Shown here: positions 4,513-8,571 of the stretch, one piece after another
How positions within the stretch are numbered: the first letter of the stretch is position 1
Layout: every line of letters starts with the position of its first letter
Source: a virus
Strand: one strand, 5' to 3'
UHGV virus genome: UHGV-0139945
DNA length: 26,445 bases
Position numbers and translations under genes: made by a program
The notes under the pieces: model-generated
Seen by the model: the letters and a program-made list of their open reading frames with translations, nothing else
Database searches by the model: none
Told to the model about the DNA's origin: nothing

Positions 4513-4539
4513 ATAAAAAAACCCCGCCGAAGCGAGGTT
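4513..4539 (-). terminator. Rho-independent terminator (minus strand), copy 1 of an identical 27-bp element
   Basis: Minus strand reads AACCTCGCTTCGGCGGGGTTTTTTTAT: 6-bp GC-rich stem (one G-U pair), UUCG tetraloop, U7 tract. Identical to 8545-8571. Confidence 0.55.
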
Positions 4540-4557
4540 CTCGTTTGACTGAAATGG

Positions 4558-4935
4558 CTATTTCTTGAGTGCCTCAGCATAAGCCTGAGCGCTCTTTTGT
4601 GATGACTCCATTATGTCATCAGTCAGCGTTTGCTGGCCCCATTTGGTGACCTTACCATTAACGAAAGTTATAACCAGTCGATCGTTAGCCAATTGTTCGT
4701 TATCAATGATTGTGTAGCCATAGAGAGCCTTATTCCAGTATATCCAGCGCTCACGTTCCTGGTTCACATCCGTCCTGCGTGGTGACCCCATGATCTGCAT
4801 GACGTCGTTTTTGTTCATTCCAAGAGATAAAAGCATTGATCTCTGGTTGTAATCTACTTTCTGGACTGTTGGTGCACATGCGGTAATTGTTAAAGCTGAA
4901 ACACCAATTAATGCTGCAAAAAGTAACTTTTTCAT
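4558..4935 (-). CDS. Lipoprotein, BamE/SmpA-OmlA-like fold (moron in the lambda bor position), 125 aa
   Basis: Start taken at internal ATG 4935 (MKKLLFAALIGVSALTITAC...) giving a signal peptide with lipobox-like ITAC; GGGGATAGGGAC precedes the ATG; LSLGMNKNDVMQIMGSPRR...WIYW...ITFVNGKVTKW resembles BamE-type domains (recollection). Confidence 0.65.
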   Translation of the reverse strand: MKKLLFAALIGVSALTITACAPTVQKVDYNQRSMLLSLGMNKNDVMQIMGSPRRTDVNQERERWIYWNKALYGYTIIDNEQLANDRLVITFVNGKVTKWGQQTLTDDIMESSQKSAQAYAEALKK

Positions 4936-5042
4936 GTCCCTATCCCCATCGGTTTGTTTGGGACAGATTAACAGGGGAAACAATAACACCGCAATTGAGC
5001 CCGGCATTATCGCAGGCACTCAGTGAATGCCTGCTGTAATGC

Positions 5043-5285
5043 CTACTGCTCTTTGGTAAATGACGTTACACCGAGTTCAGCAAGCTGATGCTTTACCGCA
5101 CCAATGCGTCGGCTAAGCTCACCAGTGACGCTACTGCGTACTGCATTAACAAAGGCATCATCCTGATAACGACTCTGAATCGTGACACCTAGCCCTTCCC
5201 CACGCGCGACGATTGCACGTTGTGCTTCGAGTTCCCTAAGCTGTTCGCATAAGATTGAAGCGGCGTTAACATTATTGATGTTCAT
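5043..5285 (-). CDS. Hypothetical protein, 80 aa
   Basis: ORF-track ORF; start overlaps the stop of the upstream o-spanin candidate (5282-5285); no recognisable motif. Confidence 0.45.
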   Translation of the reverse strand: MNINNVNAASILCEQLRELEAQRAIVARGEGLGVTIQSRYQDDAFVNAVRSSVTGELSRRIGAVKHQLAELGVTSFTKEQ

Positions 5286-5503
5286 TTGCTTGTACCTTGC
5301 GGGCAGTTCGCCAGCACTGATTTGTTATGCGTCAGAATGTCGCGCTTCGTCTGACGGTCGAGAACGTCAATATCGTGGTCAGTCAGATAGATGATCCGCA
5401 CCCAACTACATGCGGTATCAACCACCACTGGAGCGGGTGAAGTGCTCGCGCAGCTCGCGATCAACATCGTCATCAGGCATATGGCTAACAGTCTGCTGTA
5501 CAT
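5282..5503 (-). CDS. Putative o-spanin (Rz1-like outer-membrane lipoprotein), 73 aa
   Basis: Internal ATG at 5503 preceded by AAGAGG; product MYSRLLAICLMTMLIASCAS... has a signal peptide plus lipobox (IASC) and Pro-rich mature part; begins inside the i-spanin candidate in another frame. Confidence 0.5.
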   Translation of the reverse strand: MYSRLLAICLMTMLIASCASTSPAPVVVDTACSWVRIIYLTDHDIDVLDRQTKRDILTHNKSVLANCPQGTSK

Positions 5504-5693
5504 TGCTGGCCTCTTTCGTGACTTCCGCTTTACGTTCTGCTGCGGCAACGATGGCTGCTGCATTCTCTTTGGTTCGCTGCTGTTCGGCTTTGGCTTCCGC
5601 CTTGCTGGTCCCGCGGACATGGCCTAACCCAAATGCGCCAGCGATTAAGCCAAGCAGAACGACTACCAGCCCGCTTATAAATTCAAGGCTCAT
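5418..5693 (-). CDS. Putative i-spanin (Rz-like), 91 aa
   Basis: N-terminal transmembrane segment (ISGLVVVLLGLIAGAFGL) followed by a charged, Ala/Lys/Glu-rich segment; ATGA overlap with the upstream membrane protein gene; overlapped by the lipoprotein ORF. Confidence 0.5.
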   Translation of the reverse strand: MSLEFISGLVVVLLGLIAGAFGLGHVRGTSKAEAKAEQQRTKENAAAIVAAAERKAEVTKEASNVQQTVSHMPDDDVDRELREHFTRSSGG

Positions 5694-6034
5694 TGTGCCT
5701 CCTGCTGCTCATCGGCTTTTTCTTTCAGCTTTGGCTGTCTGACGTACTGAGAAAGGATGGCGAGAACTACCAGTGCGGGGCTAATCATCGCAACAACGTT
5801 GGGCGGCAGAATACCTTTGATATCCGGCGGCAGTATTGCCCAGGCATGAAGAGCAGCATCCGGGAATGATTGAGCCCATACACCGACCAACGCGCCGGCA
5901 GCGCCCAGGCGGACAGACCATGTTTTTAGCAGCAATCGGGCATGCCCAACGAACTCCAGCCGGGTATATTTGCGCAGTAACAACAGAACGAGCAAGGCCA
6001 CCAGCGCCAGCAGAGCGAAAATAATCATCTTCAT
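5690..6034 (-). CDS. Lysis-cassette membrane protein (LysA / antiholin-like), 114 aa
   Basis: Two to three hydrophobic segments (MKMIIFALLALVALLVLLLL..., VVAMISPALVVLAILS); ATGA overlaps with endolysin stop (6031-6034) and i-spanin start (5690-5693). Confidence 0.5.
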   Translation of the reverse strand: MKMIIFALLALVALLVLLLLRKYTRLEFVGHARLLLKTWSVRLGAAGALVGVWAQSFPDAALHAWAILPPDIKGILPPNVVAMISPALVVLAILSQYVRQPKLKEKADEQQEAQ

Positions 6035-6573: not shown

Positions 6574-6575
6574 TG

Positions 6576-6929
6576 TTAAGCCTTTTTATCTCCGCCGCCG
6601 ATACCAAACCGGCTGCCTAAATATTTCATTGCGAATGCCCTGAGGGTGTCCACACCAATAAGTCCAATACCGCCACCGATAGTCACAGAGAGTGTTTTAG
6701 GCAATCCGAGATACTCCAGCGCGGATGAACATGTCAGCGTCAGAGCACCACAGAGTAGAATTTCGAGAGTTTTCTTCTTCCAGCCGCCACCGCCGCCAAA
6801 ATAAGCAATACGCAGCCCAGCCATAAGCAAAGAAAACAATACTGCGCCCAGCGGCGTATCTCCGCGCCACCAGCTCTGCAGCAACTCCAGCAAATCAGGC
6901 CAGTTGCTCGGGTTATTGGGCATTTTCAT
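6576..6929 (-). CDS. Holin, lambda S-like, 117 aa
   Basis: Starts MKMPNN (Met-Lys-Met dual-start motif as in lambda S); hydrophobic helices separated by Gly-rich turns; charged C-terminus; immediately upstream of the endolysin. Confidence 0.8.
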   Translation of the reverse strand: MKMPNNPSNWPDLLELLQSWWRGDTPLGAVLFSLLMAGLRIAYFGGGGGWKKKTLEILLCGALTLTCSSALEYLGLPKTLSVTIGGGIGLIGVDTLRAFAMKYLGSRFGIGGGDKKA

Positions 6930-7070
6930 AGTCTCTCACCTCGCAGGGTTGCGGGTGTTAGTGTGATGGGTTCAGGCTTCAGGGCTACTCTGTTAAGTGG
7001 CAATGTCAAAGGTGAATCCCTGAGCCTGAAAGTGATGGCCACCACAGCAACGCTTAGCCGCAGTAAACCG

Positions 7071-8123
7071 TTATATTTCTATTAACCTTCTGATTTCTTC
7101 AGATGTCTGAATAAATCTTTCCGCCTCCAGCTCAACACCAATGGCGCGACGGCCTGATTTAATCGCTTCCTTTATCGTAGAACCGGATCCCATGAAAAAG
7201 TCAGCGATCAGTTCACCTGGCCGGCTGCTGGCTGTAATGATCTGCTGCAGCATATCGGCAGGTTTTTCACATGGATGTTTGCCTGGATAAAACTGAACTG
7301 GTTTATGCGTCCAGACGTCGGTATATGGCACCGTGACGGAGACACTAAACGGTCTTCGCAGACGCTGATATTCCTGCTGAAGTTCGGAGTATTTTCGATT
7401 AAGGGATTGCCAAGTAGCGACCAATTGGTGATGGGGTTTCCCGAGTTCGTTGCGCGAATGCTTGTCCAGGGCTATTTGCTGAAATAAAGCCTGCAGCTTC
7501 AGATAATCGGTTTCGTTCGGTAGTTGCCACTGGCTAAGGCCAAACCAATGGGAAACCATATTTTTCTTGCCTGTTGCGGCAGCAATTTGAGCTGAAGTTA
7601 CCCCAAGGGAATCCCTAGCGGCGCGGAAATATGTAATTAACGGGGTCATGACATGCTGCTTTAACTCGTTGCATTTAACAGCAAAGCCATCATCTTTTGG
7701 TTTGTATGGCCCCTGATAATGATCGGCGAAAATTATGCGTTCTGTCGCCGGGAAGTATGAACGGAGGCTCTCTTTATTACACCCGTTCCAGCGTCCGGAA
7801 GGTTTAGCCCAGACGATATGGTTAAGCAGATTAAACCGCTCACGGACGAGAAGCTCTATATCTGATGCCAGACGGTGACCACAAAACAGATACATACTGC
7901 CAGATGGCTTTAATACCCTCCAGAATTGCACCAGGCAGCTGTCAAGCCAACGTAAATAATCCTCATCCCCTTTCCACTGGTTGTCCCAACCGTTCGGCTT
8001 CACCTTAAAATACGGCGGATCCGTAACTATGAGATCTATGGAGTTATCGGGGATGGACGGGAGATATTGCAGGCAGTCAGAGTTGATCAACTCAACACTG
8101 GATATTTTTACAGTATTTTTCAT
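7071..8123 (-). CDS. DNA methyltransferase, beta-class (N6-adenine or N4-cytosine), 350 aa
   Basis: DPPY motif near the N-terminus (LIVTDPPYF) and AdoMet motif I near the C-terminus (ADFFMGSGST) give motif order IV...I; HTH-like insert (LGVTSAQIAAATG). Confidence 0.85.
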   Translation of the reverse strand: MKNTVKISSVELINSDCLQYLPSIPDNSIDLIVTDPPYFKVKPNGWDNQWKGDEDYLRWLDSCLVQFWRVLKPSGSMYLFCGHRLASDIELLVRERFNLLNHIVWAKPSGRWNGCNKESLRSYFPATERIIFADHYQGPYKPKDDGFAVKCNELKQHVMTPLITYFRAARDSLGVTSAQIAAATGKKNMVSHWFGLSQWQLPNETDYLKLQALFQQIALDKHSRNELGKPHHQLVATWQSLNRKYSELQQEYQRLRRPFSVSVTVPYTDVWTHKPVQFYPGKHPCEKPADMLQQIITASSRPGELIADFFMGSGSTIKEAIKSGRRAIGVELEAERFIQTSEEIRRLIEI

Positions 8124-8272
8124 AGATCAGTAAGCGTAACTCATGATAGGCTCACTTTGCTTTTGCGCTAAAGCAGTGGGCCTAGGTTCGCTTGTGACCA
8201 TGTACATGAGCGAATGGCTGGCCGGGTGCTACAACACCCACCAGCCGCCCATTTTCACAGCAGAAAGCCTCT

Positions 8273-8467
8273 CTACTCAGGGAGGCGCTTATAACATCCG
8301 AATTGATAATCCGATAAACCTGCCATTACCAGCTGCGTTAAAATTAACTGGCAGCGTTCGCGCGTTAGATGCGTGTTCTGCGCAATCTCCCCGGCCGTAG
8401 CTGGTTCATCACTTAACTCATTAAAAACAGCGCGCGCCACCTCTGTCATATCATCTTGATTTAGCAT
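8273..8467 (-). CDS. Hypothetical small protein, possible winged-helix, 64 aa
   Basis: ORF-track ORF; AGGAAA precedes the ATG at 8467; AGEIAQNTHLTRERCQLILTQLVMAGL is HTH-like; first gene after the tR'-like terminator. Confidence 0.4.
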   Translation of the reverse strand: MLNQDDMTEVARAVFNELSDEPATAGEIAQNTHLTRERCQLILTQLVMAGLSDYQFGCYKRLPE

Positions 8468-8544
8468 GTCTTTTTCCTGTTTAAACGGTATGACATACAG
8501 ATAACTCTGGTTGCGAACCCCATCAAGAAGTTATTGCAGAAGGC

Positions 8545-8571
8545 ATAAAAAAACCCCGCCGAAGCGAGGTT
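8545..8571 (-). terminator. Rho-independent terminator (tR'-like), copy 2 of the identical 27-bp element
   Basis: Same sequence as 4513-4539; located between the Q-like gene and the late operon, where lambdoid phages place tR'. Confidence 0.55.

Follow-up and report, generated by a model that had tools for sequence, protein, structure and literature searches.

The late control described for the PR' promoters of phages lambda, 82 and 21 involves a promoter-proximal pause site and depends on the antiterminator Q. In lambda, the gene for Q is followed by a constitutive late promoter, a −10-like element in the early transcribed region, the terminator tR' (the 6S RNA terminator, a hairpin with a U-run), and the first late gene; the terminated late RNA of lambda is about 194 nt long. 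Terminators also accompany the morons, genes that carry their own promoter and terminator for expression from a repressed prophage, the first described being HK97 gene 15, located before the tape-measure gene (PMC3594210). For mosaic phages, short conserved sequences at module boundaries have been put forward as places of recombination (PMC3029335). Here, we describe a 27-bp element, ATAAAAAAACCCCGCCGAAGCGAGGTT, which occurs twice in the virus genome UHGV-0139945, a stretch of 26,445 nucleotides analyzed over its full length (hereafter, the window): one copy at 8545–8571 (T1), behind a Q-type gene, and the other at 4513–4539 (T2), behind a lipoprotein gene, all coordinates being those of the whole window. 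With a probability of roughly 0.85, we consider that T1 and T2 are, respectively, a tR' terminator and a moron terminator, both of which Q-modified polymerase would pass, and that they are identical because both hold the commonest allele (with a UUCG loop) of a generic terminator design at ordinary late-operon positions.

Scanning of the plus strand of the window established that the two copies match exactly, as the initial annotation had reported, and revealed no third copy with up to three mismatches. The 27-mer is the longest exact direct repeat of the window (repeat family D5), with a spacing of 4032 bp between the copies, whose identity ends precisely at the 27-mer borders (t/c on one side and c/a on the other). 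No match to the 27-mer was obtained in 100 dinucleotide shuffles; such shuffling is the wrong null for terminators, however, and relative to the pool of phage terminators the allele is common, so that a second copy within the window is unsurprising. Folding also bore out the GC stem, UUCG tetraloop, and U7 that had been assigned to the minus strand: the minus-strand (coding) RNA of each copy forms a hairpin, CCUCGC-UUCG-GCGGGG, followed by U7 (in DNA, AACCTCGC-TTCG-GCGGGGTT followed by further T's and AT), with an 8-bp stem containing six G/C-containing pairs, one of them G·U, and with fold energies of −14.5 kcal/mol (z −4.2) for T1 and −15.4 kcal/mol (z −3.8) for T2. The T1 copy (8571–8552) was also flagged by a separate scan. 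The fold of the plus-strand transcripts is weak (−7.5 and −8.1 kcal/mol), as in them the G·U wobble turns into an A·C mismatch; the element, folding strongly on the minus strand only, is therefore unidirectional and oriented in the same way as the genes. Thus, in both copies a G+C-rich hairpin lies directly before a U-run on the transcribed strand, co-directional with the minus-strand neighbors, T2 being located 18 nt past a stop codon and T1 behind a promoter. From these features, we infer that both copies are Rho-independent terminators co-directional with the late operon and would act as such in vivo. Three other identities considered for the repeat were rejected: a bidirectional terminator, by the weak plus-strand fold; a miniature inverted-repeat transposable element (MITE) or other larger repeat, by the exact stop of identity at 27 nt; and contamination by a vector or synthetic part, by the fact that every context is a natural gene end. 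Rfam searches of the whole window (at the gathering threshold) and of positions 4200–8900 (in E-value mode) assigned no family, giving only sub-threshold matches (istR, RsmY, and RNAI) driven by the terminator hairpin, and a full-text literature search with the hairpin sequence gave no match.

The surroundings of T1 are closely comparable to those of lambda tR'. The Q-type late antiterminator is encoded on the minus strand at 8661–9380 (PF06323, E 1.8e-35; phrog_304, E 6.6e-69) and matches that of Klebsiella phage KpnBHU6 at 85.8%, with the Q-like proteins of N15, PY54, and phiKO2 as distant relatives. An exact-protein look-up of Q returned no record, probably owing to a start-codon difference. 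The T1 hairpin (AACCUCGC-UUCG-GCGGGGUU, with the subsequent U-run and AU; 8571–8545, minus strand) is positioned 89 nt past the Q stop codon, with a further 77 nt up to the following ATG (8467). Between Q and T1, a late promoter PR' is predicted on the minus strand at 8607–8635, consisting of a −35 element TTGCAA (8635–8630), a 17-nt spacer, and a −10 element CATATT (8612–8607), from which the transcript would start near 8601–8599 and yield an RNA of about 52–55 nt ending in the T1 U-run. A −10-like element, TGATATTTT (8587–8595, minus strand), would then occupy about +7 to +15 of the initial transcribed region and, by analogy with the late control of lambda, 82 and 21, is a candidate for the sigma70-dependent pause site at which Q is loaded. 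The locus thus resembles lambda in the whole series from Q through the constitutive late promoter, the −10-like early element, and the hairpin with its U-run to the first late gene, and also in that a short terminated transcript would be expected without Q. It differs from lambda in that the hairpin is unrelated (AATCCCGAAAC...GTTTCGGGATTTTTTAT in lambda), that the predicted RNA is shorter, and that Q is of the PF06323, N15/PY54-like type, for which a sequence search of the PDB gave no match and hence no relative of solved structure.

Conservation of this arrangement was examined among relatives of Q that had been collected by protein homology, independently of the 27-mer. In their alignment (A1, read without L022, which is in the wrong orientation), the −35 element, the AACAAAATGAGC spacer, and the −10 element are nearly invariant in both the close (85–90% amino acid identity) and the distant (37%) Q lineages, and the pause block, ATTTGATAT / ATTTGGTAT, is also kept across the lineages. 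In the close relatives, the stem AACCTCGC/GCGGGGTT is retained at the T1 position with the loops TTCG, TTAG (the commonest), TACG, ATCT, and ATCG, and unrelated hairpins replace this stem in L183 and in the distant group. A hairpin with a T-run is nevertheless present in nearly all Q relatives, the T-run being broken in L182 and L186. Hence, the promoter and pause block is co-conserved with Q, a terminator stands at the same place, and T1 itself lies between Q with its late promoter and the first late gene. The placement of this copy at a tR' position, already proposed in the initial annotation, is in agreement with these results, and T1 is probably the tR' analogue of this phage, the promoter, the pause site, and the dependence on Q being assigned from the architecture and from the known control of lambda, 82 and 21. 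In the two relatives with broken T-runs (GCGGGGTTATTTGC at L182:7810-7840 and GCGGGGTTATTTATGCC at L186:7810-7840), the tR' may be weakened and the late operon leakier.

T2 (4539–4513, minus strand) follows a gene for a BamE-like lipoprotein (4558–4935, minus strand; PF04355, E 1.8e-5; phrog_18614, E 9e-73), as had been noted earlier, and precedes by 22 nt the ATG of a gene for a 61-aa protein. The real start of the lipoprotein is MKKLLFA... at 4935; the protein begins MKKLLFAALIGVSALTITAC... and contains the lipobox ITAC. Its gene has a 5' leader of about 107 nt, up to 5042, and many relatives lose homology to the window at 5044, that is, at the 5' edge of the lipoprotein unit. The T2 stem follows the lipoprotein gene in homologous loci, with the exact 27-mer in 27 of 50 and with the loops TTAG, TTTG, TACT, TGCG, and TCCG in others; a second lipoprotein gene lies between the lipoprotein gene and the terminator in L223–L228, and the two most distant of the 50 loci (L240 and L241) are without the T2 stem. 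The BamE-like gene is missing from the syntenic position in L176, L177, L180, L181, and L185, and it occurs together with its own terminator at other genomic positions in L229–L238, where homology to the window is limited to 4513/4516–4946 (the open reading frame and the terminator) and the unit is placed before a tape-measure gene, which in L229 and L230 comes directly after the exact 27-mer. As judged from sequence, T2 is therefore the terminator of a BamE-like lipoprotein moron. The arrangement is similar to that of HK97/HK022-type phages, whose late operons contain insertions of a dispensable gene accompanied by its own terminator. The annotation of HK97 lists seven putative late-operon terminators, all in the layout hairpin-T7/8-AT-G...RBS-ATG (RBS, ribosome-binding site); one of them, directly behind the gp15 moron, separates it from the tape-measure gene. 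The stems of the HK97 terminators have other sequences (ACCCGC, AACCACC, and AGCCACC) than that of T2. The moron of the window, moreover, is situated at the right end, where it precedes cos, and it is its homologues in L229–L238 that occupy the position ahead of a tape-measure gene. No room for a promoter is left between T2 and the 61-aa gene; the latter and the packaging genes would therefore be reached only by terminator-resistant transcription. The 61-aa gene is missing in L212 and L246.

In the predicted mode of action of the two terminators, RNA polymerase starting from the constitutive late promoter past Q would, in the absence of Q, terminate at T1 after an RNA of about 52–55 nt. Q, where available, would be loaded at the promoter-proximal sigma-dependent pause and convert the polymerase into a terminator-resistant form, which would proceed to express the helix–turn–helix (HTH) gene, the methylase, and the lysis genes. 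In the lysogen, T2 would stop moron transcripts, or transcripts leaking from upstream, before the 61-aa gene, cos, and the terminase and head genes, and during lytic growth the Q-modified polymerase would pass through T2 as well.

The initial annotation had further suggested that the repeats are the scar of a recombination event and could mobilize the methylase and lysis module between them; as direct repeats, they would then be substrates for its deletion or insertion. In principle, two 27-bp direct repeats 4032 bp apart could allow rare RecA- or Red-type recombination. Comparison of relatives gave a different picture, since the two sites are conserved separately. According to the synteny table, Q, T1, the HTH gene, and the methylase are found with other lysis cassettes and terS in genomes without a BamE-like gene or T2 (L176, L177, L180, L181, and L185), and conversely the BamE-like gene, T2, the 61-aa gene, terS, and terL are found behind other Q and lysis modules without T1 (L198, L199, L201, L205, and L207). 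The HTH gene with the methylase, the lysis genes, the slot of an 80-aa protein, and the BamE-like gene are each swapped independently among relatives, and in no relative is the segment between the repeats present or absent as a block. Pattern scans of IMG/VR and the JGI metagenomes for the T1/T2 deletion junction (TATAAAT-27-mer-ATGCAAAAAGAGG) and for the reciprocal junction gave no match, and no recombinase or transposase is found among the annotated genes between T1 and T2. A deletion between the repeats would, moreover, take out the lysis genes, and the 27-mer is not specific to this unit. We thus regard recombination of a 4-kb cassette at these repeats as extremely improbable, and a false lead of a mobile lysis and methylase cassette is thereby removed.

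Recent duplication, the other origin suggested in the initial annotation, would have copied one terminator onto the other in this lineage, either as such or by short-patch gene conversion, and would account for the 27/27 identity. It is favored by the exactness of the match at a time when most orthologous tR' sites differ from T2 by one loop base (TTAG versus TTCG), and by flanks that share nothing outside the 27 nt, as is expected after a short conversion tract. The stem, however, is already common to both families of orthologous sites, leaving at most one base to convert, and UUCG is the allele expected under selection for hairpin stability. Furthermore, L184 carries the exact 27-mer at tR' beside a different second terminator (AGCCTCGC-ATAT-GCGGGGCT), and L246, whose backbone is 97.6% identical, has an exact T1 and, in a replaced BamE block (86.5%), a T2 whose loop has 5 nt. 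Where a single genome contains two such terminators, they are usually non-identical: the loops are TTTT and TTCG in L192, one mismatch in the T-run separates the pair of L214, and the terminator AGCCTCGC-ATCT/ATAT/GTTC-GCGGGGCT found downstream of the lysis region in the Q lineage is paired with TTAG, TACG, ATCG, or TTCG at tR', the combinations including TTAG/ATCT, TACG/ATCT, ATCG/GTTC, and TTCG/ATAT. There is thus no concerted evolution in these lineages, and the identical T1/T2 pair is peculiar to one phage (L193, L244, L245, L247, and L248). On this evidence, a copying event is very unlikely, if somewhat less so than cassette recombination; in all probability, neither copy was recently derived from the other and no mobile unit is delimited by them, so that the functional part of the initial annotation holds and its evolutionary part fails. 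As a separate observation, a second terminator of the stem family (AGCCTCGC-NNNN-GCGGGGCT with a T-run) is located before terS in the moron-less Q relatives L175, L178, L180, L181, L182, L184, and L185; in L185, the sole locus examined in detail, it lies directly after Rz (11459-11486). A tR' combined with a post-lysis terminator appears to be a recurrent layout in the Q-lineage group.

The identity of T1 and T2 is better understood from the distribution of the 27-mer, which occurs unlinked at a large number of sites. Exact-match scanning of IMG/VR detected it in at least 120 viral contigs, and among the matches listed, 119 with full flanks fell into at least 42 upstream clusters, at least 31 downstream clusters, and at least 49 combinations of the two. 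Its neighbors include tape-measure proteins (of three PHROG families), tail fibers, baseplate wedge subunits, and the major head gene after its protease, and at other sites it comes after Ant anti-repressors, the J protein, or a membrane moron protein. In a set of one genome per species, the exact 27-mer was present in 53 stretches: directly after groEL in Zhongshania, Oceanospirillaceae, Neptuniibacter, and a metagenome-assembled genome (MAG) of Schleiferiaceae; after rpmG and before mutM in an Enterobacterales isolate; after a tRNA gene in several Vibrio species; and also in Pseudomonas, Acinetobacter, and an alphaproteobacterium, the provisional placements in Bacteroidota resulting from MAG binning. 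The groEL, rpmG, and tRNA sites (L121–L173), in distant bacteria and in several cases on MAG contigs, look like convergence on one terminator sequence. The E. coli narGHJI terminator, GACCCTGCTTCGGCGGGGTTTTTTTATGGG, which has a C(UUCG)G tetraloop and its own G·U wobble and is contained in most E. coli genomes, shares 22 contiguous nt with the 27-mer and is 2 nt away from it; in 382 of 5426 E. coli genomes, a 30-nt query is covered to at least 80% by the phage form, exact or nearly so. Such housekeeping terminators (of narI, groEL, rpmG, and tRNA genes) are chromosomal and confined to a single context, whereas the phage allele is found in dozens of contexts within one gene pool. Convergence on the 27-mer clearly occurs. 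The terminator design to which it belongs is generic among Proteobacteria and very common in late operons of temperate phages of enterobacteria, and the UUCG-loop allele of the window is its commonest form. With one and the same 27-mer turning up in many phages and even behind housekeeping genes of unrelated bacteria, a perfect match between two short terminators says little in favor of duplication.

Several points weigh against the proposed explanation by a shared common allele at a tR' and a moron terminator. The exact allele is rare at the orthologous tR' sites, being present at only 1 of 18 loci, with TTAG as the commonest loop; therefore, a one-base conversion of T1 by T2 may have taken place in this lineage. 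In control scans of IMG/VR, a perfect-stem variant was found in 42 stretches and a TTAG-loop variant in 11, so that the exact 27-mer is at least 3 times as common as the former and more than 10 times as common as the latter. This excess is not obviously explained by pure convergence, and spreading by recombination or oversampling of enterobacterial prophages probably contributes to it. As for the moron, the 107-nt leader is conserved with the gene in the window and L207 and contains only a weak sigma70-like match (TTGCGG-N17/18-TAATCT); the leader of L231 has a better one (TTGTAA-N18-TATGAT). Finally, the terminator function of both copies is deduced from their sequence and position.

A further possibility, compatible with the tR' and moron-terminator reading, is that the terminator serves as a conserved boundary or linker whose approximately 27 nt (approximately 40 nt where the RBS is shared) provide microhomology for phage recombination, which would account for its presence at so many mosaic junctions. 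The similarity to the proposed boundary sequences (PMC3029335) resides in a short conserved island between non-homologous flanks with breakpoints at its edges; the island in the window differs from them in having an obvious terminator function of its own and in also recurring by convergence, and its role in recombination is a candidate one. Among the IMG/VR matches listed, one and the same downstream flank cluster occurs with as many as 7 upstream clusters, the similarity stopping at the 27-mer edge. Breakpoints of homology to the window likewise often fall at the terminator borders: the homology starts at 8548/8549 in L182, L183, and L187 and at 4513/4516 in L229–L238 and L246, and in L192, where another Q lies upstream, it stops at 8574; the element is thus a short conserved sequence between non-homologous modules with breakpoints at its edges. 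In addition, 23 of 175 exact matches run directly into a shared RBS, GCCYGGAGA(A), followed by the ATG of tail genes, of which at least 13 are unrelated to one another. On the other hand, breakpoints compatible with viability would in any case be expected between genes, where terminators take up the short gaps; in about 30 relatives, homology runs unbroken across T2 (1–5044); insertion of a gene together with its terminator, as in the moron model, predicts an identical edge pattern; and the occurrence of the 27-mer in unrelated chromosomal contexts makes convergence possible. It is therefore only tentatively, and with the balance clearly against it, that we put forward AACCTCGC-NNNN-GCGGGGTTTTTTTAT (often about 40 nt with the GCCYGGAGA RBS) as a temperate-phage junction sequence that is both spread by homologous recombination and a guide for it, acting as the 3' anchor for moron and module swaps in late operons beyond what convergence or hitch-hiking would bring about. 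Should breakpoints prove more frequent at the terminator than in the intergenic background, the long-standing boundary-sequence model of module exchange in phages would gain support at the sequence level. The block of approximately 40 nt comprising the 27-mer and RBS was seen before tape-measure genes of several families, tail fiber genes, and baseplate wedge genes (e.g., L029, L039, L057, L024, L014, L113, L133, and L142), and its matches include loci of Marinobacter and Dryocola.

With the predicted late promoter, the tR', and the right-end moron terminator placed, the late region of this uncharacterized lambdoid prophage can be described in order. Every gene from about 16300 to 1382 is carried by the minus strand. 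Downstream of T1 follow the genes for a 64-aa HTH protein (8273–8467), an N6/N4 DNA methyltransferase (PF01555; 7071–8123), the holin (6576–6929), a GH108 endolysin (6031–6573), a DUF7940 protein (5690–6034), an Rz-like spanin (5282–5620), and an 80-aa protein of unknown function (5043–5285), and then the lipoprotein moron with T2. Beyond T2 lie the gene for the 61-aa protein (4305–4490; phrog_8618), also of unknown function, a cos-like site, GGGCGGCGGACTCGCGG (4110–4094, minus strand), about 400 nt downstream of T2 and upstream of terS, terS itself (3490–3993), and a GpA-type terL (1382–3490). We take the site at 4094–4110 to resemble lambda cos; given this site, the virion chromosome would have its right end about 400 nt from T2. 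The same phage is contained at 99.9% identity in NCBI assemblies, including the 5.33-Mb chromosome CP144962.1 (L245), and the closest named phage is KpnBHU6. A megablast search with 4200–8800 against phages and E. coli genomes gave partial matches only, those to E. coli being 75–82% identical, and the window is therefore not from E. coli. It carries the rightward late region of a lambdoid, cos-packaging prophage, which is probably from Klebsiella or a close relative.

Besides the methyltransferase downstream of T1, the prophage encodes two others on the minus strand, a Dam-like one (PF05869; 12402–13304) and a 656-aa C5 one (PF00145; 10439–12409), making three in all, and a DUF968 protein is encoded at 9381–10442. 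In L246, the gene of the 80-aa protein is replaced by that of a 78-aa Acb2/Tad1-hairpin (anti-defense sponge-like) protein (10848-11084), which suggests that the slot between Rz and the lipoprotein moron is a variable accessory or anti-defense slot.

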